Source: a virus. Taken from it: DNA of 40,197 nt. This document shows, piece by piece, positions 709 to 40,197 of this stretch. Position 1 is the stretch's first letter. The number at the start of each line of letters is the position of its first letter. The stretch covers positions 1-40,197 of IMG/VR virus record IMGVR_UViG_3300019458_000018; one strand, 5' to 3'. A program made the position numbers and the translations under genes. A model generated the notes under the pieces. It did no database searches, was not told where the DNA came from, and saw only the letters and a program-made list of their open reading frames with translations.

Positions 709-2073
709 GTGCATGATGCTCGCCCTCGTCGCGATGACGGTGCTCCTCGCGCTCCATTGGTGGACGACGTGACCGAACCGATCCCGGCGGGGCCCGGCCA
801 GCCACGCGAGGACTGGATCGTGCGCGCCGTACGCGAGGGGCGCTCCGATTGGGCGTGGGATACCGTCGAGAGTCGGCACGGCGGGCGCGTCTGTGCGTTC
901 GGCGTGATGCGCGACGCCCTGCGCATCGACGGCGTGCGCGTGAGCGTTACGGCGACGACGGCGCAGCGGATCGCCGACCTCCTCGGCGCGATGCTCCCGA
1001 CGCCGAAGATGGCCACGCTCACCTGGCTCACGGCGACGAAGCTCGACCCGCAGCCTCGCCCGATCAGCGCGAGCACCGAGGCCATGATCGCGCACTCGCA
1101 CGCCGTGGACGCTGCCATCGCGGGCCGCGCCGGACTCGTGGCCGACGTCGGGAAATGGTGGGTGCTCACCGACCGGCTCACCGAGAGCGTGGCTGCGAAC
1201 TTCGGCTGGCACGTCCGCACGGATCCGTGGCGCGGCATCCACACCGAGCGAGCCGTGAGCGGGGACGCCTACGTGATCCAGGGCGTCGGGCATCGGCACG
1301 ACCCCCGGCACGTCGATTACTCGCAGGTCTGCCGGCTCGTCGATGCACGCTGCACGCTCGACGGCCGGGACGTCTCGGTGCGCTCGGTCCTGGAGTCGCC
1401 GGATTGGCCGCTGCTCGACTACGGCGGCCCCCTCGGTGTGTTTCGGCAGCCGGGCGTGCCGCTGCCGGAGCAATCGATCCTCGTGCTCCCGCCGACGGTC
1501 GTCGAGGCGAGCCGCCGCGACGAGCCCGACACCGACCCCGCGCCGGCCGCGGTCCCATTCCTCCAGGCGCGCAATTACACGCCGGGGCCGCGTACCGAGG
1601 TCAAGTGGCTCGTGATCCACACCGCCGAGACGGGCGAGGTCAAGCACGCCGCTCGCAATCTCATGCAGTGGTGCGCCGGCCCGAGCGCACCGCGGGCGAG
1701 CTGGCACTACGCGATCGACGCGGAGCAGACGACGCAGAGCGTGCGGGAGGTGGATATCGCTTGGCACGCGCCCGGCGCGAACCGCTACGGCATCGGGATC
1801 GAGCATGCCGGGCGAGCGGCGCAGACCGCCGCAGAGTGGGCCGACGAGTACTCCGGGGCCGTGCTCGCACGGTCGGCGCGTCTCGTCGCCGACCTTTGCG
1901 CGCGGTGGAGGATTCCGTTCGAGCGCATCGGCCCCACGGAGCTGCGCGCGGGGACGCCGGGGATCTGCGGTCACGTCGACGTGAGCCGCGCCTGGCGCAA
2001 ATCGACCCACACCGACCCGGGCACGCACTTCCCGTGGGGCCGCTATCTCGATCTGATACGGAGCGCGTCGTGA
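709..2073 (+). CDS. Endolysin: N-acetylmuramoyl-L-alanine amidase (Amidase_2/PGRP-type) C-terminal domain, with an N-terminal domain of about 280 aa of unknown function
   Basis: C-terminal motifs resemble T7-lysozyme-type amidases: KWLVIHTAE, ASWHYAID, AWHAPGANRYGIGIEH, GHVDV...THTDPG. The start is uncertain (GTG 709 or GTG 769). Confidence 0.85.
   Translation: MHDARPRRDDGAPRAPLVDDVTEPIPAGPGQPREDWIVRAVREGRSDWAWDTVESRHGGRVCAFGVMRDALRIDGVRVSVTATTAQRIADLLGAMLPTPKMATLTWLTATKLDPQPRPISASTEAMIAHSHAVDAAIAGRAGLVADVGKWWVLTDRLTESVAANFGWHVRTDPWRGIHTERAVSGDAYVIQGVGHRHDPRHVDYSQVCRLVDARCTLDGRDVSVRSVLESPDWPLLDYGGPLGVFRQPGVPLPEQSILVLPPTVVEASRRDEPDTDPAPAAVPFLQARNYTPGPRTEVKWLVIHTAETGEVKHAARNLMQWCAGPSAPRASWHYAIDAEQTTQSVREVDIAWHAPGANRYGIGIEHAGRAAQTAAEWADEYSGAVLARSARLVADLCARWRIPFERIGPTELRAGTPGICGHVDVSRAWRKSTHTDPGTHFPWGRYLDLIRSAS
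713..772 (+). CDS. Tiny hydrophobic peptide (19 aa, MMLALVAMTVLLALHWWTT), speculative
   Basis: ATG 713 to TGA 770..772. The stop overlaps an in-frame GTG (769) of the endolysin frame as GTGA. Support is very weak. Confidence 0.15.
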   Translation: MMLALVAMTVLLALHWWTT

Positions 2074-3199: not shown

Positions 3200-4204
3200 T
3201 CATGCGCTCCAGAGCGACGTCTGGCGCGGGTGCGCGTTCGGGTCGCGGCCCGTCCAATCCGGAAACGAGATCCGCTTGACAGCGAGCTCGACGCTCCGCT
3301 CGTCGAGGTCGATTCCCACGAAGTCGCGGCCGTTCGCGACGGCCACCATGCCGACGGTGCCAGAGCCGCAGAACGGGTCGAGTACGCAGTCGCCCTTGCG
3401 GCTGCCCGCCAGAATGCATAGAAGCGCGAGCATCGGCGGCATCACGGCCGTGTGTGCGCCGTGGAACGGCACCGTCGGGACTTCCCAGACCGATCGACGG
3501 TTCTTCCTCGAGCGTGCCCTGATCTTCGAGAGGCCGCGCTTCGTGCGCATGTGCTCGTCCTCCGAGGATGTGTACTTGCCCCGGCCGGTCGCCGAGGATG
3601 TGTACTTGCCCCGGCCGGTCGCAGGCTCGGCGATCGCGTCGGCGTCGTAGTAGTACCGTCGCGACTTCGAGAGCAGAAACACGTACTCGTGCGCGCGCGT
3701 CGGGCGGTCCGCGACCGGGTCGGGTAAGGGGTTCGGCTTCGCCCAGATCAGGTCGGCGCGAAGCCACCAACCCGCTTCACGGAGCCCGAAGGCGACGCGC
3801 CACGGGATCCCGACGAGATCCTTCGGCTTCTCGTCGAACCGACGCTTCGGGTTCGTGCGTGCGCCGTTCGTCCACTTCTGACCGCCGCGCGTCCCGTGGA
3901 GGAGCAATCCGCTGTGGTCCGGTCGCGCGTTGCCCGCGGGCGCGCCCGCGTAGCAGTCGCCGAGGACGAGCCAGAGGGTGCCGTCCTGCCTGAGCACGCG
4001 TCGCACCCGCTCGAAGACGTCGACGAGTGAGGCGACGTACTCCTTCGCCGTCTCCTCCTGACCGATCTCGTGCTCGTCGTCCGTGTAGCGCCTCAGCCCG
4101 AAGTACGGGGGGCTCGTCACGCAGCACTGCACCGATCGGTCGGGCATCCCGTCGAGCTCGTCACAGGCGTCTCCCGTCGCGACGTACCACTCGCCGCGCT
4201 TCAT
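3200..4204 (-). CDS. DNA methyltransferase, N4/N6 beta-class (motif IV SPPY, motif I DPFCGSGT)
   Basis: CCVTSPPYFGLR lies near the N-terminus and VLDPFCGSGTVGMVA near the C-terminus, which is the order IV then I. SPPY is more typical of N4-cytosine enzymes. Confidence 0.9.
   Translation of the reverse strand: MKRGEWYVATGDACDELDGMPDRSVQCCVTSPPYFGLRRYTDDEHEIGQEETAKEYVASLVDVFERVRRVLRQDGTLWLVLGDCYAGAPAGNARPDHSGLLLHGTRGGQKWTNGARTNPKRRFDEKPKDLVGIPWRVAFGLREAGWWLRADLIWAKPNPLPDPVADRPTRAHEYVFLLSKSRRYYYDADAIAEPATGRGKYTSSATGRGKYTSSEDEHMRTKRGLSKIRARSRKNRRSVWEVPTVPFHGAHTAVMPPMLALLCILAGSRKGDCVLDPFCGSGTVGMVAVANGRDFVGIDLDERSVELAVKRISFPDWTGRDPNAHPRQTSLWSA
3562..3621. repeat. Perfect 30-bp tandem duplication inside the methyltransferase gene
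   Basis: ccgaggatgtgtacttgccccggccggtcg at 3562..3591 is repeated exactly at 3592..3621 and encodes ATGRGKYTSS twice. Confidence 0.97.
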
Positions 4205-4386: not shown

Positions 4387-5159
4387 GACGCCACCTCGGC
4401 GGCCACGTCACGCTCGATCTCGTCGAGGATCGCGTGGGTGAGTCGGTCCGCCTCCGCCGCCGCCGCCGCCCTCGCCTCCGCCCACGCCGCCGCCCCCGCC
4501 TCCGACGCCGCCCACGCCGCCGCCCTCGTCCACGTCGCCGCCCACGCCGCCTCCCTCGCCGCCGTCGTCGCCCACGCCGCCGCCACCCTCGCCGCCGCCG
4601 CCGCCGCCCACGCCGCCCACGCCGCCTCCGCCGCCGCCTCCGCCGCCGGCTCCGCCGCCCTCGCCTCCGTCTCCGCCTCCGCCTCCCTCGCCGCCGCCTT
4701 CGCCGCCAGCTCCCTCGCATCCGCCTCCGCCGCCGCCTCCCTCGCCTCCGCCTCCGCCGCCGGCTCACCGCGCCCACGGCGCTCGCAGAGCGCCGCCACG
4801 CGCTCGCACACGGCGAGCACCGCGGCGTCGTCAGTGTGCCGCATCGCCTCCCGCACGCAGAGTGCCCGCACCCGCCAGTCGCACGCGGGCGAGACGCCAC
4901 CGAATCGTGGCGCGAGGCGCACGACGCGCTCGACCACCGTCGGCCAGTGCTCGACCGAGCCCGCGTCGTCCATCCACGGCAGCAGGTGCGCGAGCCACTG
5001 GGGGCACGTGCTCGTCGGGCACGAGCCGTCACCGGGGCGGGCGTGCGGGTCGCCCAGGAGTGCCGTGTAGAGGCAGAGGAGCTGGCGGCCGTCTTCGATC
5101 CGCGACCACTCGCGGCGGATCAGCCGGCCCTCGCGCACGACGTCGGCGAGGGGGGTCAC
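4383..5159 (-). CDS. Hypothetical protein with a Cys/Trp-containing N-terminal domain and an Ala/Glu/Trp low-complexity helical C-terminal half
   Basis: The likely start is GTG 5159, overlapping the upstream stop (the ORF-track start at 5273 is probably too far upstream). The C-terminal half reads ...AAEAAWAAWAAAAAARVAAAWATTAAREAAWAATWTRAAAWAASEAGAAAWAEA... Confidence 0.65.
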   Translation of the reverse strand: MTPLADVVREGRLIRREWSRIEDGRQLLCLYTALLGDPHARPGDGSCPTSTCPQWLAHLLPWMDDAGSVEHWPTVVERVVRLAPRFGGVSPACDWRVRALCVREAMRHTDDAAVLAVCERVAALCERRGRGEPAAEAEAREAAAEADARELAAKAAAREAEAETEARAAEPAAEAAAEAAWAAWAAAAAARVAAAWATTAAREAAWAATWTRAAAWAASEAGAAAWAEARAAAAAEADRLTHAILDEIERDVAAEVAS

Positions 5160-5386
5160 GACGCCACCTCCTCGAGCAGCCAGCCCAGCCGCTCGCGGTC
5201 CGCGTCGGTGATCCGCGGGTCGTCGGCGGCGAGCGCCGTCCACTCCCGCGCGACCCCGAGCCCGCCGGGCCACGACTGATCGTCGTCGTAGAGCGAGTAC
5301 CCTGGCGCGGTGTCGTCTGGGAGCTGCACGAGGATCGTGCCGCGGTCCGTGAGGACGTAGCCGCGGTGGGCGAGCGCCGCGCTCAC
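5156..5386 (-). CDS. Hypothetical protein (76 aa)
   Basis: The GTG 5386 start overlaps the upstream stop (GTGA). Product: MSAALAHRGYVLTDRGTILVQLPDD...LLEEVAS. Confidence 0.6.
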   Translation of the reverse strand: MSAALAHRGYVLTDRGTILVQLPDDTAPGYSLYDDDQSWPGGLGVAREWTALAADDPRITDADRERLGWLLEEVAS

Positions 5387-5805
5387 GACGCCACCGTCCA
5401 GGTCTGCTCGCCCACGGTCACGTGGCGCACGTCCCAATCGTTCGACTTCTTACGTGAGTATCCGTCGTGGCCGCCGACCGACCAGCGGCCGGGGCCGACC
5501 CGATACCCGCCGTCCACGCGCTCGCCCCACGTAGCACTGTCGCCGCGCCCGCAGCGAGCCCACCCGCTACCGCGCGAGAGGGCCTCGAAGCGGTGAGGGG
5601 GCAGCACGATCGTCTCGCCCCGCCACACGAGCAGGGCGCGCGCGAGCACGTCGAGCACCTCGGGGGGCGCCCCGAGCTCGACCGCGCGCGTGAGGGTCTT
5701 GAGCCGCGCGGGCGAGAGAGCACTCACCCACGCGAACGGGGTCTGGGTCTGGGTCTGGGTCAGGGTCTGGGTCTGGGTCTGGGTCTGGGTCTGGGTCTCG
5801 GTCAT
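5383..5805 (-). CDS. Hypothetical protein with an N-terminal (Thr-Gln)n repeat; first gene of the leftward early operon
   Basis: ATG 5805 is preceded by GGAGG (5815..5811) at a 5-nt spacing. Product: MTETQTQTQTQTQTLTQTQTQTPFAW... Confidence 0.7.
   Translation of the reverse strand: MTETQTQTQTQTQTLTQTQTQTPFAWVSALSPARLKTLTRAVELGAPPEVLDVLARALLVWRGETIVLPPHRFEALSRGSGWARCGRGDSATWGERVDGGYRVGPGRWSVGGHDGYSRKKSNDWDVRHVTVGEQTWTVAS
5741..5800. repeat. Hexanucleotide microsatellite (GTCTGG)n, 10 units with 2 imperfect
   Basis: Read directly: gtctgg x3, gtcagg, gtctgg x5, gtctcg. It is in frame and encodes TQ repeats on the minus strand. Confidence 0.95.
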
Positions 5806-5829
5806 CTGAGCCTCCATGCCCCCCACCTA

Positions 5830-5857
5830 GCACGTGGCGTGCCATTATGTTCCGCGG
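5830..5857 (-). promoter_or_regulatory. Left copy of a 28-bp inverted-repeat element; sigma-54-type promoter candidate facing the leftward operon
   Basis: The minus strand reads ccgcggaacataaTGGCACGccacGTGCt. TGGCACG-N4-GTGC(T) compares with the consensus TGGCACG-N4-TTGCW. The GG and GC dinucleotides have the canonical spacing, and the -12 GC lies 25 nt upstream of ATG 5805. Confidence 0.55.
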
Positions 5858-5892
5858 CGCCCGGCGAAAGCGGGCTATTAGCGGGCTCCGGA

Positions 5893-5919
5893 GGGAGGGG
5901 GTGGGGGGGTGGGTGGGGG
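5893..5919 (+). other. G-quadruplex-forming tract (G3 A G5 T G7 T G3 T G5)
   Basis: Read directly: gggagggggtgggggggtgggtggggg. Five G-runs are separated by 1-nt loops, within the divergent control region. Confidence 0.6.
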
Positions 5920-6123
5920 TAGATCGTCCCAGGGCCCCTATTGCGCGCCCGCGAAAAGCCCGGACAATCCGCGCACTTGCCGGCCGCCGCCGCACCCAGG
6001 CGGCCAGCACCCCGCAAAACATAACGAAGCCCGCAAAAAGTTCCGCCGGAACATAACCGCGCGGAACTTAACCAGAAAGACCCCATTTCCTCGGCATTCG
6101 CACGGAGCACTATGACTCGGAGA

Positions 6124-6327
6124 TCATGCCCCGGGGGCGCGCAGAGGGCGGGGGACGGGCTCGGTCTCGAGCCCCACCGCGAGCCGGATCCGGCGCAGGT
6201 GCTGGCGGGTGATCCCGTGCGCTCGGGCGACCGCCGCCCAGTCCCCTCGCTCTCTCCGCTCGCGCTCCAGGCCGTCTGCGCCCCCGGCGAGGAGGGCGCG
6301 GACTGTCGGCGAGACCGTGCGGGCCAC
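6124..6327 (-). CDS. Small Fis-type helix-turn-helix protein (67 aa), tentative
   Basis: GTG 6327 to TGA. The C-terminal GDWAAVARAHGITRQHLRRIRLAVGL resembles the Fis/NtrC C-terminal HTH pattern (G-N-x3-A-A-x2-L-G-I-S-R-x-T-L-x-R-K-L-K-x2-G-L). The long 6124..7410 ORF in the track is otherwise Arg/Pro-rich junk. Confidence 0.45.
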   Translation of the reverse strand: MARTVSPTVRALLAGGADGLERERRERGDWAAVARAHGITRQHLRRIRLAVGLETEPVPRPLRAPGA

Positions 6328-6365
6328 GCGGCCGGACCCTGCACGCGCCGGGCCGGACCGGCCCG

Positions 6366-6393
6366 GCGCGTAACATAATGGCACGCCGCGTGC
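6366..6393 (+). promoter_or_regulatory. Right copy of the 28-bp inverted-repeat element; sigma-54-type promoter candidate facing the rightward operon
   Basis: The plus strand reads gcgcgtaacataaTGGCACGccgcGTGCa. It matches the reverse complement of 5830..5857 at 26 of 28 positions. Confidence 0.55.
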
Positions 6394-7223
6394 AGAGACG
6401 CAGGGTCGTGCGGCTACACTGGTCCACGCTCTCTGTGGTCGCGACGTCTCCCGCGCTCGCCCGATGGCGGGCCGAGCACCCGCGTCCGGACACGTCAGCG
6501 CTCGCGATCGGGAGAGCGATCCACTGCGCGGTCCTCGAGCCCGCGCGCTGGCGGAGGGCGTACGCAGTCCAGCCGCCGCCGCCCGAGTGCCGGACGCGAG
6601 ACGGCCGGATCGCCGACGTGCCCCTCGCGACCAGCGAGGGCAAGCGCTGGCTCGCGGAGTGGAGAGCCAGCCTCGCGCTCGGATGCGAGGTGCTCTCCGC
6701 TGACGACCACGCGCTCGCAGAGACGTGCGCTCGCTCCGTGCGTGCGCATCGACACGCCGCCGCCCTGCTCGCCGAGGGGCACGCGGAGGTCTCGCTCTCG
6801 TGGGAGACCGACGGGGTCCCGTGCGGCGGCCGGCTCGACTGGATCGGGCGCTGCGTCGTGGATCTGAAGACCACGCGCCGCGAGTCGCTCCGCGAGATCG
6901 CTGCTGACTGCGCGCGGTACCTCTACCACGGACAGCTCGCGTGGTATCATGACGGCGCGGTCGCGGCGGGTGCCGTGGCCGCGGACTCGACGCCGCACCT
7001 GATCGCGGTGCAGACATGCGAGCCGTACGACGTCGCGGTGCTGCGCGTCCCGCCGGCCGTGCTGGAGATCGGGCGCTCGCTGTACCGCGCACTGCTCGCT
7101 CGGTATCGCGAGTGCCAGGCCGCCGGGTGGTGGCCGGGCATCGCACCCGAGGTAGTGGATCTGGACCTGCCGCACTGGGCGGCGGGCGGTGATGGCGGCG
7201 ACGCTGCCGAGGAGTGGTGGTGA
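6378..7223 (+). CDS. PD-(D/E)XK exonuclease (RecE/exonuclease VIII-like, DUF3799-type)
   Basis: Motifs: HWSTLS..SPA, GRAIHCAVLEP, GRLDWIGRCVVDLKTT, QLAWYHDG. The start is uncertain: ATG 6378 and GTG 6390 lie inside the putative promoter, and GTG 6408 is the last start that keeps the conserved N-terminus. Confidence 0.8.
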   Translation: MARRVQRRRVVRLHWSTLSVVATSPALARWRAEHPRPDTSALAIGRAIHCAVLEPARWRRAYAVQPPPPECRTRDGRIADVPLATSEGKRWLAEWRASLALGCEVLSADDHALAETCARSVRAHRHAAALLAEGHAEVSLSWETDGVPCGGRLDWIGRCVVDLKTTRRESLREIAADCARYLYHGQLAWYHDGAVAAGAVAADSTPHLIAVQTCEPYDVAVLRVPPAVLEIGRSLYRALLARYRECQAAGWWPGIAPEVVDLDLPHWAAGGDGGDAAEEWW

Positions 7224-7224
7224 C

Positions 7225-7560
7225 ATGGAGACGAAGCTCATCGAAATCCGAGACCGCGGGACGAAGATCGTCGCGCTCGCGACGCGCATGGTCCCGGCGA
7301 CCCCGCGCGAGTCGGCGCTGCTCTCGTGGTGCGGCTACGGGCCCGCGACCCCGCTCGTGGTCCTCGCCTACGCCGACCCGGACAACGGGGGCCGCACCGA
7401 GTGCCATCACGACCCGGTCGAGTGGCGGCTACACCGCGGCCGCACGATGCAGCGCGCGCACCTCCACCTCCAGGACCACTGGGACGACGTCGAGGACGGC
7501 GGCGTGGTAGACGTCGAGTACGTGGCGGGCGAGGTCGACGCACCAAAGGTGGCATCGTGA
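7225..7560 (+). CDS. Hypothetical protein (111 aa)
   Basis: ATG 7225 lies 1 nt after the exonuclease stop. Product: METKLIEIRDRGTKIVALATRMVP...DAPKVAS. The composition looks like real coding sequence. Confidence 0.7.
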   Translation: METKLIEIRDRGTKIVALATRMVPATPRESALLSWCGYGPATPLVVLAYADPDNGGRTECHHDPVEWRLHRGRTMQRAHLHLQDHWDDVEDGGVVDVEYVAGEVDAPKVAS

Positions 7561-7769
7561 GGCCGCTCACCCCTGGCGCGTACGTCGACCGGCTGCGCGC
7601 GATCCGCGCGCGACAGGACGAGGACATTGCAGCCGCGCAGGCGGAGGCCGCTGCGCACGTCGTCGCGCGGAACAGGGCACGCGGCGCTCGGCTCCTCGAG
7701 CGCGTGCCCGAGGCGGACCGGGAGGCGGCGATCCGGATGGTCTCCGCGGTGCTCGGGGACGTGCTGTGA
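7557..7769 (+). CDS. Hypothetical protein (70 aa)
   Basis: The GTG 7557 start overlaps the upstream stop (GTGA). The predicted product is helical. Confidence 0.55.
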   Translation: MRPLTPGAYVDRLRAIRARQDEDIAAAQAEAAAHVVARNRARGARLLERVPEADREAAIRMVSAVLGDVL

Positions 7770-8230
7770 CCGTCGGCGTCGCTGGCGGCGGAGACGACGA
7801 TGCGTGGCGCCGGCACGTCGTCGAGTGGCAGGGGCGCCGATGGGTCGCCGCGCTCCCGACGGGCGTCACTGCCGCGATGGTCCTCGTCGGGGCCGCGCAT
7901 TCGACCACGGCGGTCGACTGTCCCACTCCAAAGCAGATCCCGACGCGCCGCATCGGCACGGTGGATTTCCTCGCGCTCCGAGACTGGGCGGCACACGGGA
8001 CCGTGCGCGAGATCGCGGGCCGCATCATCGATCGCGCGCTGCTCCGTGAGTCGCTGCTACTCGTCCCGCCGTGTCAGCGCGTGACCCTGCGCGCGGACGA
8101 GGACCCCGAGGGCATGCTCCGGCTCGACGGCGATCCGTGGGTCGTACTCGTCATGCCGATGCGCATCACGGCTACCGACTATCACACGCTCGACGGCGAC
8201 CTAGAGTACCGCGACGAGGTCGACCCGTGA
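7766..8230 (+). CDS. Hypothetical protein (154 aa)
   Basis: GTG 7766 overlaps the upstream stop, and its own stop overlaps the ERF start. Confidence 0.6.
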   Translation: MTVGVAGGGDDDAWRRHVVEWQGRRWVAALPTGVTAAMVLVGAAHSTTAVDCPTPKQIPTRRIGTVDFLALRDWAAHGTVREIAGRIIDRALLRESLLLVPPCQRVTLRADEDPEGMLRLDGDPWVVLVMPMRITATDYHTLDGDLEYRDEVDP

Positions 8231-8973
8231 GCGACGACCACGCGATCACGACCACGGCACCCGCGCCAGTGGTACGCGTGCATCCGGTCGTACAGGCCGC
8301 GATCGCCGCCGGAGCGAGCCCGGCGGAGCTGCGCGAGATGCTCGCGATCCAGCGCGAGTGGGAGGCGGGCGAGGCGCTCCGGGCGTACACCCGCGCCCGC
8401 GTCGCCTTACGCCGCGATCTCCCGGCCGTGCTCGCGAAAGACACGCTAGTGGACTACACAGGCGCCAAGGGCCGGGTCCGCTACACGCACACGTCGCTCG
8501 CTGCCGCGATGGACGCCGTCACTCCCGCGCTGACGCGCCACGGATTCGCTCTCGCGTGGGTGCCCGGGCGCACGGAGCGCGGCGAGGTCGAGGTCACGTG
8601 CCGGCTGACGCACACGGACGGGCACTCCGAGACGTGCACGCTCTCCGCCCCGGTGGACACGAGCGGCCACAAGTCGACCGCGCAGGGAGTCGCGAGCACG
8701 ACCACGCTACTCTCGCGCTACACGGCGCTCGCTCTGCTCGGGATCGCGACGGCGGACATGGTCGAGCCGACTGGTGAGCCGAGCGCCGGGGACGTGGACC
8801 CGCGCCGCAATCTCCGCGCGGCCGCGCGGGTGGTCGAGCGGGGCAAGACCCGCGAAGCGGCGGAGGCGCACGTCGGGCGCCCAGTCGCGGAGTGGACGAC
8901 GGCGGACCTCGAGCGGCTGCGAGAATGGCTCGGACCCGCGCTCGATGGACGTGCGTCTGAGTGCGGGAGCTGA
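8227..8973 (+). CDS. erf: ERF-family single-strand annealing protein
   Basis: The core KDTLVDYTGAKGRVRYTHTSLAAAMDAVTPALTRHGFAL...GHKSTAQGVASTTTLLSRYTALALLGIATAD follows the ERF pattern (Y-x-Y-A-x-L, GL, GSA-x-TY-x-RRY). It pairs with the upstream exonuclease. Confidence 0.85.
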   Translation: MSDDHAITTTAPAPVVRVHPVVQAAIAAGASPAELREMLAIQREWEAGEALRAYTRARVALRRDLPAVLAKDTLVDYTGAKGRVRYTHTSLAAAMDAVTPALTRHGFALAWVPGRTERGEVEVTCRLTHTDGHSETCTLSAPVDTSGHKSTAQGVASTTTLLSRYTALALLGIATADMVEPTGEPSAGDVDPRRNLRAAARVVERGKTREAAEAHVGRPVAEWTTADLERLREWLGPALDGRASECGS

Positions 8974-8977
8974 TGCG

Positions 8978-9358
8978 ATGACCTCGAAGCGCCCGATCGT
9001 GGCCGTCCCTCTCTGGTACGCGACCACCGCTCCCGTGCCTCGGTCGCAGCGAGTCGCGCACGTCTGCTGGCACGACGCTGGCGCCGTGTGTGGCGCGGAC
9101 CTGCACGGTGAGGCCGTCGCCGTGGTCGCCCGCCGCTTCCGCCGGTGTCCGTCGCATCCGAGCCGTTCGCCGGCGCACACTTCGCCGTTCGCGGGTAGCG
9201 GCACCGTCGGCATGGTCGCGGTGATGCACGGCCGCCGCTTCGTCGGCTGCGAGCTAAATCCGGAGTACGCGGCGCTCGCCGAGAAGCGCATCGCTCACCC
9301 GGACTGGGACGGGCGCGAGGTCGATGCGGACGAGAGGCAGGCGACGCTATGGCCGTGA
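8978..9358 (+). pseudogene. Remnant of a beta-class DNA methyltransferase (only the C-terminal motif I region kept), possibly still translated as a 126-aa ORF
   Basis: The C-terminus SPFAGSGTVGMVAVMHGRRFVGCELNPEYAALAEKRIAHPDW parallels DPFCGSGTVGMVAVANGRDFVGIDLDERSVELAVKRISFPDW of the 3200..4204 enzyme. No SPPY/DPPY motif is present. A different frame (9151..9195) reads VASEPFAGAHFAV, compared with VPTVPFHGAHTAV in the intact enzyme. Confidence 0.5.
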
Positions 9359-15333: not shown

Positions 15334-16661
15334 CCGAGCCGCCCGACGACGCCTCGCCGCTCTTCGACGACGACGAGCCCGGCTCGCCACCACCGCCCGC
15401 GCTCCGCGCCGTCGGCCCCGAGGACGATGAGCCCGCGTGGTACCGCGCGCTCGCGCGCACCGACCAGGGGCGCCCGCGCAAGACCGCCGGCAACCTTGCG
15501 CTCCTGCTCCTCCACGACGAGGCGTGGCGCGACGTCTTCCGCCATGAGGTCTTCGCCGGCGGTGTGCTCTGCGGCGGATTCCCTCCGCTCCCTCGCATCC
15601 CCGAGAGCTGGGCCGCCACGCTGCCGCCGCCCGTCTCCACCACGGTCGACGACCATGTGCTCACTTACGTCGAGCACTGGGTCTCGCGGCTCTGGGGGCT
15701 CACCTACGAGCGCAGCATGATCCGCCACGCGATCGATGCCGCCGCTCGGGCGCGCCCGATCCACGCGCTCCAAGCGTACCTCGACGCCTGCGCCGACTCG
15801 TGGGACGGCACGCTCCGCGTCGACTCGTGGTGCCAGACCTACCTCGGCGCCGAGTCCGAGGGCCCAGAGACCGCCTGGATCTCTCGGTGGTGGCTCGTCT
15901 CCTGCGTCGCCCGCGCGTACGACCCGGGCTGCAAGGTCGACCACGTGCTCGTGCTCGAGGGCGAGCAAGGCGCCCGCAAGAACACCGCGCTCGAGGCGCT
16001 CGCGGGCGACCAGTGGTACCTCCCCGAGCTGCCGGACATCCGCGAGAAGGACGCGATGGGCGCGCTCGAGGGCGTCTGGCTCGTCTGCATCGACGAGCTG
16101 CGCGCGATCCGAGCCGCCGACGTCGAGCGCGTCAAGTCGTTCCTCTCGCGACGCATCGACCGCTACCGCCCCCCGTACGGGCGCGAGACCGTGTCGCGGC
16201 CGCGCACCGCCGTTTTCGCCGCCACGACCAACGCTCTGCAGTACCTCACCGACGAGACCGGCGCGCGCCGCTACTGGCCCGTCCGCTGCACCCACGTCGA
16301 CGTCGACGCCATCCGCCGCGACCGTGACCAGCTCTGGGGCGAGGCGGTCCACCTGTACCGCGGCGGCGCGCGCTGGTGGCCAGACACCGCGGAGGAGCGC
16401 TCAGCGCTCGGGGACCTGGTCGAGCGCCGCGACGTCGTCGACGAGTGGGAGGTGGGCGTCGCCCACGAGCTCCGCGGCCTCGACGAGACCACCGTCGGTG
16501 ACTGCCTCACCGCGCTCGGCCTCGAGCGGCGCGACTGGCGCCCCGCCGACCAGCACCGCGTCCGCCGCTGCCTCACCCGCCTCGGCTGGGTGGAGTGCCG
16601 CGCCTCCCGCTCGGAGCGCCGCCGCGTCTGGCGGCGACCCGACCCGACCGACGGCGCCTGA
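15330..16661 (+). CDS. VirE-like / D5-type P-loop NTPase (replicative helicase-primase partner)
   Basis: VLVLEGEQGARKNT (P-loop), LVCIDEL (Walker B-like), RYRPPYGRE...PRTAVFAATTN..YL.D.TG.RRYWPV. The ATGA overlap joins it to the Prim-Pol gene. Confidence 0.8.
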   Translation: MTEPPDDASPLFDDDEPGSPPPPALRAVGPEDDEPAWYRALARTDQGRPRKTAGNLALLLLHDEAWRDVFRHEVFAGGVLCGGFPPLPRIPESWAATLPPPVSTTVDDHVLTYVEHWVSRLWGLTYERSMIRHAIDAAARARPIHALQAYLDACADSWDGTLRVDSWCQTYLGAESEGPETAWISRWWLVSCVARAYDPGCKVDHVLVLEGEQGARKNTALEALAGDQWYLPELPDIREKDAMGALEGVWLVCIDELRAIRAADVERVKSFLSRRIDRYRPPYGRETVSRPRTAVFAATTNALQYLTDETGARRYWPVRCTHVDVDAIRRDRDQLWGEAVHLYRGGARWWPDTAEERSALGDLVERRDVVDEWEVGVAHELRGLDETTVGDCLTALGLERRDWRPADQHRVRRCLTRLGWVECRASRSERRRVWRRPDPTDGA

Positions 16662-16664
16662 GGG

Positions 16665-16694
16665 CCCCCCGCCCCCCCCGCCCCCCCGGCCCCC
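16665..16694 (-). other. C6-g-C8-g-C7-gg-C5 tract (G-quadruplex on the minus strand, i-motif on the plus strand)
   Basis: Read directly, starting 3 nt after the VirE stop codon: ccccccgccccccccgcccccccggccccc. Confidence 0.6.
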
Positions 16695-16755
16695 GGGCCC
16701 GCCACGCCTCTCCACCGTCCGGCCCACGGGCCGAGCCGGGCCGCCCCGCCCTTCG

Positions 16756-17007
16756 GATCCCGGGATCGATCCCGCCCCCCTGCCAGGGAGATCGCAAAGC
16801 CTTCCGCCCACTTGCCCCCCCGATCCCGGGATCCCGGGTCAAAGTGCCCATCCGAGGGGAGGCACTCTCGGCCCGGGGTAGCCCTGGCTGTAGATATCCC
16901 CCTACTATTTCTCTCTCTCTCTATGGGATCGCCGGGATCATGGGACACAAGGCCTCGGATCTACACCCGATCCCCGAGCCCGGGTAGCCCTGGGATCTGG
17001 CGGGATC
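16756..17007. repeat. Iteron/palindrome field: candidate origin, pac site or late regulatory region
   Basis: The 12-bp palindrome GATCCCGGGATC occurs twice (16756..16767 and 16822..16833). It overlaps the palindrome GGGATCGATCCC (16762..16773). There are at least 6 copies of GGGATC. GGGTAGCCCTGG occurs twice (16876..16887 and 16982..16993). A (CT)6 run sits at 16911..16922. Confidence 0.5.
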
Positions 17008-17043
17008 AGCCGGGACCTCGATCGTGGTACTCTCCGCCCGCCG

Positions 17044-17484
17044 ATGGGTACGTCGGCGCATCCACTCGCGAAAAAAGTGGAGTCTGTCCGCGCGCGCGCG
17101 GACGAGCTCTCGCGATTTTCTGCGCCGCAGAAGGTGACGCGGGTGCTGCAGGCGTACCTCGAGATAGCCGACCAGGCGCTGGCGTACGAGCGGACGTGGG
17201 TCGGGTCGGACGGTCGGACGCGGACGGAGCCGCTGCCGCACTTCGAGGTCGCGCGGAAGTGCTGGGACAGCATCGGTCGCGTGCTCCGGGTGATGGGCCC
17301 CGATGTCGTGGTCGAAGTGGGTGCGGGCACGCGGCCGATGGCGACGCTGGCAGCGGCGGCGGTGCGGCGGAGGGAGGACCGGATGCTGCTGTACGAGGCG
17401 CTCCGGGCGGGCGGGCACGCTGCGGAGGCAGCGGCGGAGCTTGGGCTCGTGGTAGTCACGACGACGGAAGGAGAGAGCGTATGA
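17044..17484 (+). CDS. Hypothetical protein, first gene of the late operon (possible small terminase or regulator)
   Basis: 146 aa with a C-terminal HTH-like stretch (RMLLYEALRAGGHAAEAAAELGL). The stop overlaps the next ATG (ATGA). The function is guessed from position only. Confidence 0.6.
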   Translation: MGTSAHPLAKKVESVRARADELSRFSAPQKVTRVLQAYLEIADQALAYERTWVGSDGRTRTEPLPHFEVARKCWDSIGRVLRVMGPDVVVEVGAGTRPMATLAAAAVRRREDRMLLYEALRAGGHAAEAAAELGLVVVTTTEGESV

Positions 17485-17879
17485 TCCTGGAGCTGCTGGA
17501 CGATCGTGTGCTGGTCGAGCCGGACCGCGAGGAGTACACGACCGGGGCGGGCATCGTGCTCGCGCTCGGGACGGACGCGAGCGCGAAGAAGGGGCGCATC
17601 GCTGTGCGACGAGGACGCGTAGTCGCCTGCGGGCCGGGCCGCGTGACGGAGCGCGGCGACCGCGTGGCCATCACGGTGCGCCCGGGCGACTACGTCTGGT
17701 ACTCGGTGATGCTCGCGGTCGAGCTGCGCTGGTCCACCGGCGACGAGTCGCGGCCGAGCGTGGACCTCGTGCTCTGCGAGGAGGGCGACCTGTGGGGCGT
17801 GGAGCGCGAGGGCGCGTGGGCGTTCGCGCCGATGGCGCGGGGCGCGGTCGCGCCTGTAGGCACCAGGATCCTGGCGTGA
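17481..17879 (+). CDS. GroES/Cpn10-like co-chaperonin
   Basis: LLDDRVLVEPDREEYTTGAGIVLA, GRVVACGPGRVTERGDRVAITVRPGDYVWYS and LVLCEEGDLWGV are collinear with E. coli GroES ([24 protein letters not shown] / GEVLAVGNGR...VKVGDIVIFN / VLIMSESDILAI). An SD-like GGAAGGAGAG precedes the ATG. Confidence 0.75.
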   Translation: MILELLDDRVLVEPDREEYTTGAGIVLALGTDASAKKGRIAVRRGRVVACGPGRVTERGDRVAITVRPGDYVWYSVMLAVELRWSTGDESRPSVDLVLCEEGDLWGVEREGAWAFAPMARGAVAPVGTRILA

Positions 17880-18706
17880 GCGTCTACCTCATCGCGGAGG
17901 TCGGCACGACACACGACGGCAGCCTCGGCAACGCGCTCGCGCTCGTCGATGCGCTGTCGGTCGGCGAGTATCCCGTCAACGCGGTGAAGTTCCAGGACCA
18001 CTTCGCCGACATCTCCAGTCTCGACTCGCCCGCGCCGTGCCCTCGCGGGTTCCTCGCGCCCGTCGAGTCGCGGCGCGAGTACCTCGAGCGCGTGAGCGCG
18101 TGGGGCGCGCGCGAGTGGCGTGCGCTCCGTGACGCGGCCCGGCGGCGCAAGATCGACTACGTCGTCTCGCCGTTCTCGGTGGCCGCTGCCGAGCGGCAGT
18201 GGCAGTGGTGCGAGCCGGACCGCTGGAAGGTCGCCTCGGGCCAGGCGACGAACCTCGCGATGCTCGCGTTTCTGGGGGGCACGGGTCGCCCGGTCATCCT
18301 GTCGGCGGGCCTAGTGACGGCCGACGAGCGGCAGGTCGCCGACGACGCTCTGCGCGCCGCCGGCTGCACGGACATCGCGTGGCTGTGCTGCACGAGCGAG
18401 TACCCGTGCCCGCCCGAGCACGCGCGGTACCAGGAGTGGCGGTACTTCGATGGTCTCTCCGACCACACGCGAGGGAAGTGGGCGCCCATCGCAGCGGTGG
18501 CCCGCGGGGCGCGCATCCTCGAGAAGCACGTCACGCTAGACACGCGGATGTACGGCTCGGATGCGTGGCACTCGATGAGCGTCGAGGAGTTCCGGGCGCT
18601 CTGCGAGGAGCTGGCGGCGCTCGAGGTGGCGATGACCAGCGGGATGCGCGGGTGGATCCCGACCGGCGCGCGAGAGCGCTACCTGTACCGGGAGCCCGGG
18701 ACATGA
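17876..18706 (+). CDS. neuB: NeuB-family nonulosonic (sialic) acid synthase, TIM-barrel part only
   Basis: Motifs: YLIAEVGTTHDGSLGNALALVDA..NAVKFQ, VVSPFS, WKVASGQATNLAMLAF, GRPVILSAGL, LCCTSEYPCPPE, GLSDHT, ARILEKHVTLD. At 276 aa it has no room for the C-terminal SAF domain. Confidence 0.85.
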   Translation: MSVYLIAEVGTTHDGSLGNALALVDALSVGEYPVNAVKFQDHFADISSLDSPAPCPRGFLAPVESRREYLERVSAWGAREWRALRDAARRRKIDYVVSPFSVAAAERQWQWCEPDRWKVASGQATNLAMLAFLGGTGRPVILSAGLVTADERQVADDALRAAGCTDIAWLCCTSEYPCPPEHARYQEWRYFDGLSDHTRGKWAPIAAVARGARILEKHVTLDTRMYGSDAWHSMSVEEFRALCEELAALEVAMTSGMRGWIPTGARERYLYREPGT

Positions 18707-19293
18707 GGGTCGAGCTGGTCATCCCAGCACGCGGAGGCAGCGTCCGCCTCCCGCGCAAGAACCTCGAGAAGATCGGCGGGCGGACGCTCGTCGAGTGGGC
18801 GATCCGCCCGCACGCCGGCGCGACGCCGTGGGTGATCACGGACGACGCGGAGATCGCGGCGGTGGCGTACGCCGCGGGGGCGCATGTCTTGCGCGACCAC
18901 CCGGGTGACGGGCCGATGGCGCGCGTGGCGATGGCGGCGGCCGAGGCGCTCGGGCTGCACGGCGGCCATGGGCTCGTGATCGTGCAGCCCACGACGCCGC
19001 TGAGGGAGTGGCGGGGCGTCGCGCGCGTGGTCAAGGCGCTGCTCGACGGCCATCCGCGAGCGGTCACGGTCGACGCTCGAGGCACCGGGCGGCGCACGGG
19101 CAGCGCGTACGGCGCGCTCGTGCAGCACTGGGCAGAGGGCGAGCGTCACGGACTCACGCCCGACGAGATGTGGTCGACCGACGAGATGTGGTCGACCGCG
19201 CTGTGCTTCGCGAGCGACGACGGCCCCGATATCGACACGCGGGAGGACCTCGAGGAAGCCCGGCGCCTCTACGCGGGCAGGCAGGCGCCGTGA
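18703..19293 (+). CDS. neuA: Acylneuraminate cytidylyltransferase (CMP-nonulosonic acid synthetase)
   Basis: The N-terminus VIPARGGSVRLPRKNLEKIGGRTLVEWAI is the CTP_transf_3 signature, and the C-terminus carries DIDTREDLEEA. Confidence 0.8.
   Translation: MRVELVIPARGGSVRLPRKNLEKIGGRTLVEWAIRPHAGATPWVITDDAEIAAVAYAAGAHVLRDHPGDGPMARVAMAAAEALGLHGGHGLVIVQPTTPLREWRGVARVVKALLDGHPRAVTVDARGTGRRTGSAYGALVQHWAEGERHGLTPDEMWSTDEMWSTALCFASDDGPDIDTREDLEEARRLYAGRQAP
19161..19196. repeat. Perfect 18-bp tandem duplication inside neuA
   Basis: cgacgagatgtggtcgac at 19161..19178 is repeated exactly at 19179..19196 and encodes DEMWST twice. Confidence 0.97.
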
Positions 19294-20297
19294 GGGTGGC
19301 GTTCGCGGTGCTGTCGCGCGCGAATTGGTCGAGCGTGGCGCCCGTGGCGACGCTGCTCCGGCGCGAGGGGCACGGCGTCGTGCTGCTCCGTGGCGGCTCG
19401 GCGCTGGTCGACCGGTACGGCGCGGGCGGTCTGCCCGAGCTGGGGCCGGGCGAGTACGAGATCCGCGCGCTCGTGGAGGATGGTCCGACGGAGACGGCGT
19501 GCCTCGCGGCGGCGCAGACGGGGGCGATCCTGCGCCGCGAGCGGCCCGACTGGCTCTACGTCGTCGGCGACCGCCACGAGATGCTCGGCGCGGCGATGGC
19601 GGGGGCGTACGAGGGCGTCCCGATCGCGCACCAGATGGGCGGGGAGCGCTCGGGGCTGATCGACGACCGCGTGCGGGACGCGATCAGCGCGCTAGCGACG
19701 CTGCATCTCGCGGCCACCGCGCAGGCGTCGGAGAGGCTGCGCTCGTTCGTCGCGGGCACGGTGGTGCAGACCGGCTGCCCGCGCATCGACGGGGTGCGCG
19801 AAGCGGTGGCGGGCGAGTGGCCTCTACCGGCGGAGTATCTGCTCGTCTACGTACACCCCGCGGACGCCGGAGTGGCGCGGGCCACCATGAGCGCAGCGGT
19901 AGCGACGGGGCTGCCAGTACGTCTGTGCTGGCCGAACGCCGACCCAGGGAGCGCCGCCGTCGTCCGGGAGCTGCGCGAGCACGGGCCAGACGTCGCTGCG
20001 TATCGCGCGCTCAGCCCGGCCCGCTACGCGCTGATGATGCACTCCTGCTCGGTGCTCGTGGGCAACTCCTCGAGCGGGCTCCGCGAGGGCGCGTGGCTCG
20101 GCGTGCCCGCCGTCAATGTGGGCACACGGCAGCAGCTCCGGGAGCGCGCCGCGAACGTGCTGGACGTAGGCCTCGACGCGGGCGCGATCCTGGAGGCTAT
20201 CGACGCGCAGCGCGCGCACGGCCGCTACCAGCGGAGCGACCTCTACGGCGACGGGCACGCGGCGCCACGCATCGTCGCCGCTCTCGGTGGCGCATGA
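19290..20297 (+). CDS. neuC: Hydrolysing UDP-N-acetylglucosamine 2-epimerase (NeuC-type)
   Basis: Motifs: VVGDRHEMLGAAMAG, IAHQMGGERSGLIDDRVRDAISALATLHLA, GCPRIDG, LVGNSSSGLREG, VNVGTRQQ.R. Confidence 0.85.
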   Translation: MRVAFAVLSRANWSSVAPVATLLRREGHGVVLLRGGSALVDRYGAGGLPELGPGEYEIRALVEDGPTETACLAAAQTGAILRRERPDWLYVVGDRHEMLGAAMAGAYEGVPIAHQMGGERSGLIDDRVRDAISALATLHLAATAQASERLRSFVAGTVVQTGCPRIDGVREAVAGEWPLPAEYLLVYVHPADAGVARATMSAAVATGLPVRLCWPNADPGSAAVVRELREHGPDVAAYRALSPARYALMMHSCSVLVGNSSSGLREGAWLGVPAVNVGTRQQLRERAANVLDVGLDAGAILEAIDAQRAHGRYQRSDLYGDGHAAPRIVAALGGA

Positions 20298-21670
20298 GCG
20301 CCGCGCCGATGCCTGCGTTTCCCGAGGCGCCGCGCGACGCGACAGTCATCGTGCAGCGCGAGGTCGACATGGCGCTCGCGACGGGTCGGCGGGTGGTCCA
20401 CGCGTCGCCGCAGGTGCTCGTCGAGAGGTGGTCTGACGTCTGCCGGCGGTACCCGGCCGTGACGGTGATCGGCGACGTTGAGTTCCAGCGGCAGATCGAG
20501 GAGAGCTGCCACATCACTGCGGCGAACGTGGGCAACACCGTCAGTCGCGGGCGCGCGTGGGTCGAGCACGCGATCGACGCGCTGCCCGACCTGCCCCGGT
20601 GGCCGTGGTCCGGAGGGCTCGAGGCGCGCGGGCTGCCGGCGTTCATCGTGGGCGCAGGGCCATCGCTGGATCGGTCCCTCGAGCAGCTCGGCGCGCGCGA
20701 CCTGCGAGACCACGGACTCGTCTTCGCCGTCAACGCTGCCACACGCGCGGTGGGGCATCACATCTGCGTCGGGAACGAGTCGAACGACCAGCGAGGGAAG
20801 ACCGTGCCGCTCGCCGACGCGGTGCTCGTCACGGGGCCGCAGGCGCATCCGGGACTGCGCAGGGAGCACCCGGGCCGCGTCGCGTGGGTATTCGCAGGCG
20901 AGCTCGGCGGCATGCTCGGGCACGTCGTCGGCCGGCCCGTCACGCCGTCGTGCTCCAGCTCGACCTCGCTCGCCGTGAGCCTCGCGCTCGGCGCAGGGTG
21001 CGACCCCATCGTGCTCGTGGGGCAGGATCTCGCGTTCCCCACGGGGACGATCTACGCGGCGGCAGTCGGGGGATTTGGCGGAGCGGCCCCGATCGTCGAC
21101 GGTGCATTCGCGTACGACTGGAGCCCGCGCACGCGAGCGCACCCGCGCGCCTCTCCGCTGCCGACCACGGAGCCCGTCTGCTACGTGCCGGCGTACGGGG
21201 GCGACTCTCAGGTGCCGACCGTGATGCCGATGGCCGCCGTGGGGCGATGGATCAGCGGCGCCGTCGCGTATCACGGACGGCGCCGGGGCATTCAGACGAG
21301 CGAGCTTGGGATGCGCATCGAGGGCTTCGCCGAGCAGCCGCTCGGCGAGGTGCTCGACGCGCTGCCCGTGCGGCCCGTGACGTGGGCGATCCACGACGAG
21401 CCGCTCCGCGGCGAGAGCGTGGAGGCGTTCCGCGCCTCGGAGCTCGCTGCGCTTGCCGCCGTCGTGGCTGCCCCCACGGCGGAGCACGCGGCCCGGAGCA
21501 GGCTGCTCGATCCGTGGGCGTTCGCGGCGGTCGCGCGCTTCCTCGAGGAGCGCCGGGCCGGCCCCGTCGAGGACTACCGCAGCGAGTACCGCCGGGCCCG
21601 GCGCGACCGCGTGCGCCTGCGCGCGCTGCTCCGCGACGAGGCGAGAGAGCTGCTCGCGAGGCTCGGGTGA
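20294..21670 (+). CDS. Maf-like (motility-accessory-factor / DUF115, MptE-like) putative nonulosonic-acid transferase
   Basis: GLPAFIVGAGPSLDRSLEQL and SSSTSLAVSLALGAGCDPIVLVGQDLAFPTGTIYA resemble the two conserved blocks of DUF115/Maf proteins. ATGA overlaps join it to neuC upstream, and a GTGA overlap joins it to the terminase downstream. Confidence 0.65.
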   Translation: MSAAPMPAFPEAPRDATVIVQREVDMALATGRRVVHASPQVLVERWSDVCRRYPAVTVIGDVEFQRQIEESCHITAANVGNTVSRGRAWVEHAIDALPDLPRWPWSGGLEARGLPAFIVGAGPSLDRSLEQLGARDLRDHGLVFAVNAATRAVGHHICVGNESNDQRGKTVPLADAVLVTGPQAHPGLRREHPGRVAWVFAGELGGMLGHVVGRPVTPSCSSSTSLAVSLALGAGCDPIVLVGQDLAFPTGTIYAAAVGGFGGAAPIVDGAFAYDWSPRTRAHPRASPLPTTEPVCYVPAYGGDSQVPTVMPMAAVGRWISGAVAYHGRRRGIQTSELGMRIEGFAEQPLGEVLDALPVRPVTWAIHDEPLRGESVEAFRASELAALAAVVAAPTAEHAARSRLLDPWAFAAVARFLEERRAGPVEDYRSEYRRARRDRVRLRALLRDEARELLARLG

Positions 21671-40064: not shown

Positions 40065-40197
40065 GCACGGGACGCCGCATCGACCTCGACTCGACGCTTA
40101 CACCAGCGCGCCGTGGCGAGCTGCGCGCGTTTGCGGGCACGCCGAAAGGGGCCACCGTCGAGTGGGTGCGGGGTCGCGGCCTGACTTTTCAACGCGG
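40061..40197 (+). CDS. N-terminal part of the wrap-around hypothetical ORF (continues at 2..235)
   Basis: ATG 40061 overlaps the fibre stop (ATGA), and the frame stays open to the end of the window. Confidence 0.5.
   Translation, partial: MSTGRRIDLDSTLTPARRGELRAFAGTPKGATVEWVRGRGLTFQR
40075..40197. repeat. Terminal direct repeat, right copy (identical to 1..123)
   Basis: Base-by-base comparison with 1..123. Confidence 0.95.

Follow-up and report, generated by a model that had tools for sequence, protein, structure and literature searches.

Results

The divergent junction of the phage genome

We analysed the IMG/VR virus record IMGVR_UViG_3300019458_000018 over its full length of 40,197 nt (the window), and focused on an inverted repeat whose arms frame the regulatory region between two divergent early operons and resemble the -24/-12 promoters of sigma-54 (RpoN). 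The termini of the window overlap exactly over 123 nt (1-123 = 40075-40197), and the sequence is therefore a circularly closed, complete phage genome of ~40,074 bp. Its G+C content is 72%. The identical sequence is present in two ENA metagenome assemblies and one Logan assembly, with zero differences over the studied region and in one orientation. The source samples are ERZ27251176, ERZ27251177, SRR7811987 and JGI 3300031576. The plus strand carries all genes from 6408 round to ~3180, and a leftward four-gene operon spans ~5817 to 3200; the studied region is thus the only divergent junction of the genome. A small minus-strand open reading frame (ORF) with a helix-turn-helix (HTH) lies between the repeat arms, as the original prediction had it. 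The features of the region are as follows, with L006 denoting a contig of a related phage that is described below.

5383..5817, minus strand: first gene of the left operon, function unknown, with a TQ dipeptide repeat; candidate starts ATG 5817 (leaderless) and ATG 5805 (after GGAGG)
5829..5859, minus strand: left repeat arm with the box P_left, core TGGCACG-CCAC-GTGCT (5844->5829); the C of the -12 GC is at 5830
6018-6024 and 6050-6056 (6018..6056), plus strand: two internal AACATAA copies, within the L006-conserved block AGCCCGCAAAA.GT..CATAACC.CGCGGA.CT
6033..6069, minus strand: terminator-like hairpin AAGUUCCGC...GCGGAACUU followed by UUUUU, 3' of the HTH ORF, with one AACATAA copy in its loop
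6124..6327, minus strand: 67-aa HTH ORF with coding-like GC, an HTH_23 match and an L006 orthologue; absent from the source annotation
6340..6355, minus strand: weak candidate box P_HTH, CGGCCCG-GCGC-GTGCA (6355->6340); the C of the GC is at 6341
6343..6371, no strand: perfect palindrome ACGCGCCGGGCCGG-A-CCGGCCCGGCGCGT with 14-nt arms, between and overlapping P_HTH and P_exo
6364..6394, plus strand: right repeat arm with the box P_exo, AACATAA followed by TGGCACG-CCGC-GTGCA (6379-6394); the C of the -12 GC is at 6393
6408..7223, plus strand: exonuclease gene (DUF3799 / exonuclease VIII-like), heading the long rightward operon; probable start GTG 6408

Promoter-like boxes in the arms of the repeat

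A repeat search recovered the two arms at 5830-5859 and 6364-6393 as 30-nt sequences that are 90% complementary (27/30) and separated by 504 nt, and a whole-genome scan listed this pair first among inverted repeats. The 28-bp repeat with agreement at 26 of 28 positions that had been noticed earlier sits within it. Read outward, each arm is AACATAA-TGGCACG-CC(A/G)C-GTGC(T/A), with the AACATAA flank of P_left at about -33..-27. P_left and P_exo each have one mismatch to TGGCACGNNNNTTGCW and are the sole sites in the 40 kb at one mismatch or fewer. The proposed fit to the RpoN consensus with a single mismatch in the -12 box is borne out for both. TGGCACGNNNNNTGC occurs twice in the genome against 0.19 occurrences expected; the two matches are copies of one repeat and hence not independent. 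AACATAA occurs four times (0.07 expected), always between 5845 and 6378. A scan of 5300-6900 for sigma-70-type promoters (-35/-10 with a 16-18 nt spacer) returned none, -10-only promoters of high-GC lineages being outside its reach. This absence supports the -24/-12 reading.

The boxes were compared with base frequencies and a rough position weight matrix (PWM) built from 51 curated sigma-54 promoters (S2 table of PMC12316311). The common pattern is an A/T-rich flank followed by TGGCA(C/T)(G/A), N4 and GTGC(A/T), which agrees with the reference at T-26, G-25, G-24, C-23, A-22, T-14, G-13, C-12 and W-11. In the four strong boxes, two in the window and two in L006, GG and GC are exactly 10 nt apart and the single mismatch is a G for T at -15. 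The A/T-rich stretch 5' of TGGCA resembles that of many Escherichia coli sigma-54 promoters, for example fdhF (CACATAAAATGTGGCATA). The strong boxes of the window score 13.8 and 10.7 bits on the generic PWM and rank 2 and 5 among ~80,000 positions, with a range of 4.9-23.7 bits for the training promoters.

Conservation of the boxes in a related phage

The sole close relative of the exonuclease, 83% identical, is found on L006/L007, contigs from other samples. L006 has the same layout as the window: leftward genes, then ~800 bp of intergenic DNA with small minus-strand HTH genes, then the exonuclease gene. Most of its intergenic DNA has diverged from that of the window. It contains three boxes.

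L006 2137->2122, minus strand: left box TGGCACG-GGGA-GTGCA, counterpart of P_left
L006 2856->2841, minus strand: HTH box CGGCACG-CGAG-GTGCT, back-to-back with the L006 exonuclease box
L006 2858-2873, plus strand: right box TGGCATA-GGAC-GTGCT, counterpart of P_exo

TGGCAYRNNNNGTGCW has two matches in the 6.6 kb of L006 against 0.00 expected. TGGCA, GTGC and the final A/T are invariant over the four strong boxes, while the four-base spacer and the flanks differ; over all six boxes the spacers are CCAC, CCGC, GGGA, GGAC, GCGC and CGAG. The GCACG/CGTGC dyad (5+3+5) of the window decays in L006, and GG-N10-GC persists. TGG is conserved solely on the side of the box that faces away from the gene, and all six boxes point toward the adjacent gene. 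Because the boxes were kept while flanks, spacer and dyad diverged, and because TGG is one-sided, the pattern argues for a directional -24/-12 promoter; an operator with dyad symmetry, a site of recombination or a hairpin would not predict it. The original prediction that a repeat fronts both early operons therefore needs amendment: the arms do contain promoter-like boxes that face outward, but the 28-bp repeat itself is not the functional unit, as the intergenic region of L006 contains no long or extended inverted repeat.

A relaxed pattern, [TC]GGC[AC][CT][GA]N4GTGC[AT], matches three times each in the 40-kb genome and in L006, against 0.32 and 0.07 expected, respectively. All these matches lie in the regulatory region and face the adjacent gene, with none elsewhere in the window or L006. 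A high PWM match at 3707 of L006 was rejected as a promoter, since the next gene begins its coding sequence there with METKLL.

The boxes are absent from other phages that encode a related exonuclease or ERF protein (L001-L003, L008-L030). A scan of viral contigs for the exact motif gave 0 matches. Among the 120 matches listed in a metagenome scan most were unrelated, and the sole relative, L045, is the same contig as L007. Searches for relatives among cultured phages with 5000-9000 (blastn) and with the portal and major capsid proteins (tblastn) gave no match.

The third box and the distance to the start codons

In the window and in L006 alike, a box precedes the HTH gene as well as the two operons. 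The start codons lie at the following distances from the C of the GC.

Window exonuclease: 14 nt, GTG 6408
L006 exonuclease: 13 nt, ATG 2886
Window HTH ORF: 13 nt, GTG 6327
L006 HTH ORF: 13 nt, GTG
Window left gene: 12 nt, ATG 5817, in frame with ATG 5805 after GGAGG
L006 left gene: leader of ~43 nt; the ATG is preceded by AAAGGA, a likely ribosome-binding site

In five of the six box-gene pairs the start codon thus lies 12-14 nt past the -12 GC. Sigma-54 promoters initiate ~12 nt past the GC, which with this spacing implies that five of the six units would yield leaderless or nearly leaderless mRNAs. ATG 6378 and GTG 6390 do fall within the right box, and the proposed start of the exonuclease at GTG 6408 on a very short leader fits L006, where the ATG is 13 nt past the GC and the protein, beginning MTRLHWSTL..., aligns with that of the window. 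On the left side, a Shine-Dalgarno sequence with its start codon had been proposed. The ATG at 5805-5803 does follow GGAGG; it is, however, the second ATG in frame, the first being at 5817-5815, 12 nt past the GC. This suggests that the left gene may alternatively start leaderless at ATG 5817.

The small HTH gene and nearby elements

The GC content of ORF 6124..6327 by codon position is 0.85/0.63/0.88, which is coding-like, although the antisense frame would give the same pattern. The original prediction had labelled its product a Fis-type HTH protein. Running the corresponding model, HTH_8 (PF02954), did not uphold this label, which is a lead at most: in Pfam the window ORF matches HTH_23 alone, and weakly (15 bits, E=0.023). 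An AlphaFold2 single-sequence model of the 67-aa protein has four helices (predicted local distance difference test, pLDDT, 79), and a Foldseek search of the PDB with it returned nothing at E<=0.001, the match to Fis (6p0s_B; E=6.4, template modelling score 0.49) not being significant. No homologue was found among 1.84 billion representative proteins, and no PDB entry matched in sequence.

BLASTP relates the window ORF to the first HTH ORF of L006 (HTH1) at E=3e-5. HTH1 matches HTH_23 above threshold (28.2 bits) and HTH_8 below it (18.4 bits, E=0.0019; gathering threshold 22 bits). It opens at the GTG after the HTH box, reads VALEREALRARLRAARARAGSWSAAARQLGISYRT..., and its TGA overlaps the GTG of the second HTH ORF (GTGA), which indicates that both are real genes. 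The 67-aa protein is probably a small DNA-binding regulator.

The perfect palindrome at 6343-6371 is a candidate regulator-binding site. Folded as RNA it gives z=-2.4, and no counterpart was found in L006. The hairpin at 6033..6069 is tentatively read as a terminator; it is not conserved in L006, where the counterpart folds poorly (z=+1.4).

Activator and host

To open DNA, the sigma-54 holoenzyme depends on an activator that hydrolyses ATP. We found none of the enhancer-binding protein (EBP) motifs GAFTGA, ESELFGH and GxSGxGK (Walker-type) in the six frames of the genome and no Sigma54_activat match among the gene calls, in accordance with the earlier statement that the phage encodes no AAA+ EBP. 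Therefore, if sigma-54 is used, the activator must be that of the host, and we infer that the host has rpoN. Sigma-54 is almost universal in diderm bacteria that bear lipopolysaccharide (PMC3162934), most EBPs are carried by Myxococcota (PMC12316311), and Actinomycetota are effectively without RpoN (PMC12316311, PMC3162934).

A scan of GTDB genomes with the exonuclease sequence alone gave no match. With an exonuclease alignment it gave only four distant matches (38-44%), the best in a Polyangiaceae metagenome-assembled genome (MAG; 44%), followed by an Isosphaeraceae MAG. DUF5131 has its best match on a Gemmatirosa plasmid, and VapE has its best matches in phages of Burkholderia and Pseudomonas. 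The head-tail connector is podovirus-like, with a portal and adaptor that resemble those of SU10 and P22. A related high-GC prophage has DNA in common only with Pseudomonas, Burkholderia and Myxococcus phages. The exonuclease, DUF5131, VapE, connector and prophage matches are weak hints at a Gram-negative host bearing sigma-54. NeuB homologues are at most 49% identical and come from mixed phyla.

The 454-aa Amidase_2 protein (window 709-2073) has full-length homologues at 43-52% identity, one of which (49% identical) sits among the baseplate genes of an 83-kb phage. We therefore dropped its assignment as an actinophage-type endolysin; it is probably a virion-associated tail lysin and as such a weak indicator with little bearing on the host.

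Two contigs with related exonucleases may be mentioned here. On L014, an Isosphaeraceae MAG contig of 40,208 bp, a divergent junction that includes a small HTH gene precedes a 38%-identical exonuclease; the junction contains A/T-rich -10-like elements (TTATAT, CATACT) and no sigma-54 boxes. L014 may represent a remote branch of the group to which our phage belongs, one in which ordinary promoters are used. L016, a short prophage-like contig from a Candidatus Competibacter MAG, contains a perfect TGGCACGGGATTTGCT sigma-54 consensus (3316-3331) 3' of a related exonuclease gene.

Gene content and other observations

The gene content of the phage is as follows.

Recombination: DUF3799/exonuclease VIII and an ERF annealing protein
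DNA modification: several N6_N4 methyltransferases, DUF5131 and a radical SAM protein
Replication: helicase, VRR-NUC, Prim-Pol and VapE
Auxiliary: GroES-like protein, NeuB and an epimerase
Virion: terminase, P22/SU10-like portal, SU10-like adaptor, major head protein and the Amidase_2 protein

Several of the large virion proteins (1040, 797 and 550 aa) are without a function assignment. Searches with Pfam (and, for polymerase and sigma factor, PHROGs) revealed no integrase or recombinase, RNA polymerase, sigma factor or AAA+ activator among the phage genes. The genome has no match to Rfam families.

The first protein of the left operon carries an N-terminal (TQ)n dipeptide repeat, encoded by a GGGTCT hexanucleotide array at 5739-5800. 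This protein has 138 aa in one assembly and 140 aa in another, which suggests that the copy number of the repeat varies. A C-rich tract and a CT-rich A/T patch lie in a 383-bp non-coding gap 3' of the VapE-like gene (16661-17044); the gap also holds 8 of the 26 genomic copies of CGGGATC, arranged as GATCCCGGGATC palindromes, and an overlapping 24-nt palindrome at 16809-16846. The gap may serve as a replication origin or as a middle/late promoter region; a sigma-54-like box is absent there. The adjoining region 17044-20300 encodes a GroES-like Cpn10 followed by NeuB (without a SAF domain), a 196-aa ORF, a UDP-GlcNAc 2-epimerase and an MptE-like protein, and thus includes a cassette for the synthesis of nonulosonic (sialic-like) acid within a 40-kb phage. 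A 22-nt inverted repeat (17633-17654 / 18122-18143, 95% complementary, arms 467 nt apart) lies within the GroES-like and NeuB coding region.

Discussion

The arms of the repeat are probably sigma-54 (RpoN) -24/-12 core promoters of the two divergent early operons, with a weaker third promoter of this kind for the HTH gene. We hold this reading, which is drawn from comparison of sequences, with moderate confidence; it is strengthened by the second genome and by the third box.

Several observations weigh against it. All six boxes have G at -15, a base found in ~3% of the 51 reference promoters, where T is usual. The scoring with a sigma-54 PWM that had been proposed earlier is equivocal: the strong boxes fall inside the training range, but they are not unique outliers and the generic matrix does not single them out, and P_HTH of the window scores poorly (-0.9 bits, rank 282). 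The argument accordingly depends on how the boxes are conserved, oriented and spaced, and not on the matrix. Only two independent genomes have the arrangement, and other phages with related exonucleases are without it. Neither an EBP nor a recognisable enhancer site was identified in the phage, the intergenic blocks conserved with L006 being enhancer candidates at most. Leaderless GUG mRNAs are best known in lineages that lack sigma-54. Among cultured phages, the Amidase_2 protein matches only actinophage lysins (27-30% identity), and the matches of DUF5131 are best and mostly in Mycobacterium and Gordonia phages (45-50%). These actinophage-like matches point to a phylum effectively lacking RpoN; the databases behind them are heavily biased to phages of the Mycobacterium/Gordonia type.

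Some of the same observations would fit promoters that are read by a lineage-specific host sigma factor, or by an unrecognised phage-encoded or virion-delivered factor or polymerase, with the likeness to sigma-54 a coincidence. An actinobacterial host would need such a reader, and the Amidase_2 and DUF5131 matches lean that way. The leaderless geometry with GTG starts and the G at -15, atypical of sigma-54 promoters, are in its favour, as are the virion proteins of 1040, 797 and 550 aa to which no function is assigned. We nevertheless consider this explanation rather unlikely. The chance that an arbitrary bipartite motif matches sigma-54 at 11 of 12 positions is ~1e-6; the positions conserved among the boxes are those conserved in sigma-54 promoters, and the variable ones correspond to the sigma-54 spacer. 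Moreover, neither Pfam nor PHROGs reveals a polymerase or sigma domain, and the Amidase_2 protein, as a probable tail lysin, says little on the host. It is less likely still that the GCACG-N3-CGTGC dyad and AACATAA form an operator bound by the HTH protein or a host repressor, the true promoter having CATAAT/TAACAT as its -10 element. Both window copies do contain a perfect 5+3+5 dyad, CATAAT matches TATAAT at five of six positions, and AACATAA occurs four times in a region where an HTH gene lies between the copies. In L006, however, the dyad has decayed (GCACG..AGTGC, GCATA..CGTGC) and the right box is without the CATAA flank, while TGGCAY-N5-GTGCW is intact; TGG is conserved on a single side; the promoter scan found nothing of the sigma-70 type; and a -10 element at CATAAT would place the start site within the dyad. 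An operator can also coexist with the sigma-54 reading, as a repressor site may overlap a sigma-54 promoter.

The arms might also serve as recombination sites of an invertible 0.5-kb segment (Hin/Gin-type or an inverton), since arms of 28-30 bp, a hix-like size, surround a segment encoding an HTH_23-like protein, or as short bidirectional insulating terminators, each arm read inward looking like a 5-bp hairpin with a T-containing tail. We rejected both as very improbable: the phage encodes no recombinase or integrase, the stems are just 5 bp, and both the extended repeat and the hairpins are missing from L006. The three assemblies are identical and in a single orientation, and flipping the segment would leave unchanged which promoter faces which operon.

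The boxes resemble bacterial -24/-12 promoters such as glnAp2, pspA, norV and fdhF in having TGGCAC and TGC(A/T), GG and GC 10 nt apart, an A/T-rich upstream flank, directionality and no -10/-35 pair. They differ in the G, instead of the usual T, at -15 of every copy; in having neither a cognate activator gene nearby nor a recognised enhancer site; and in start codons that lie 12-14 nt past the GC and would imply leaderless mRNAs, whereas well-known E. coli sigma-54 promoters have leaders. We know of no description of -24/-12 promoters combined with leaderless mRNAs.

The original prediction called sigma-54-driven early transcription an unusual phage strategy. This is fair, but there is a precedent: according to a passage in PMC10914365, which cites Ceyssens et al. 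2008 (PMID 18065532), the Pseudomonas aeruginosa phage YuA has sigma-54-like promoters, one of which was re-detected by ONT-cappable-seq. Both phages would lean on host sigma-54 for part of their transcription. To our knowledge, YuA has not been described as encoding its own activator, and its sigma-54 promoters reportedly serve the late region for particle formation and lysis, as Ceyssens and colleagues are said to have verified in an rpoN mutant in 2008. In the phage studied here, by contrast, the boxes, putative promoters identified from sequence, stand ahead of all early units, the first-expressed genes among them; they differ further in their divergent arrangement around a small regulator, the invariant G at -15 and the leaderless transcripts that are implied.

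The layout recalls the PR/PRM/PL region of lambdoid phages with Cro/CI, in which two outward early promoters also surround a short regulatory region with a small HTH gene, that gene lies back-to-back with one promoter, and short repeated motifs adjoin the promoters. Unlike in the lambdoid region, the promoters would be sigma-54-like and not sigma-70, neither a CI-like repressor nor an integrase is present, and the HTH protein is without detectable homologues. The latter, as modelled, shares with Fis and the C-terminal HTH_8 of the NtrC family a short four-helix module that ends in an HTH, and LEREAL..G.WSAAARQLGISYRT of the L006 orthologue is reminiscent of the DNA-binding domain of EBPs (HTH_8, E=0.0019). 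However, the window protein has no HTH_8 match and no AAA+ domain, its scores are sub-threshold, and the structural match to Fis is not significant.

From the sequence, conservation, orientation and spacing of the boxes we propose a model that predicts sigma-54 binding, activator dependence, transcription start sites and a role for the HTH protein. Host RNA polymerase bearing sigma-54 would bind the boxes as a closed complex, which a host AAA+ EBP would open. Initiation would occur ~12 nt past the GC, placing the 5' end at the start codon or 1-3 nt ahead of it in five of the six pairs and giving leaderless early mRNAs. The 67-aa HTH protein would be expressed from its own weak box between the operons, and would most likely bind the CGCGGAAC(A/T)TAA repeats and/or the palindrome and modulate the flanking promoters in the manner of a Cro switch. 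A bolder version, to which we give little credence, is that a virulent phage without an activator gene drives its whole early programme from sigma-54 promoters with an invariant G at -15 and leaderless mRNAs. These promoters would respond to whichever AAA+ activator is abundant in the host and acts from solution, or would need none, and a stand-alone Fis-like HTH protein would be the sole phage control. If true, this would be a natural exception to the silence of sigma-54 promoters until a dedicated enhancer-bound activator acts.

Should the sigma-54 reading be correct, the boxes could provide compact orthogonal expression parts for high-GC bacteria, and could mark the host range of uncultured phages by ruling out phyla without RpoN. 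For the genes that a virus expresses first upon infection, a sigma factor that requires an activator is a strange choice. Its use would mean that the phage makes its entry decision depend on how active a host EBP is, and hence on a physiological signal of the host, or alternatively that natural sigma-54 promoters have escaped strict activator control.

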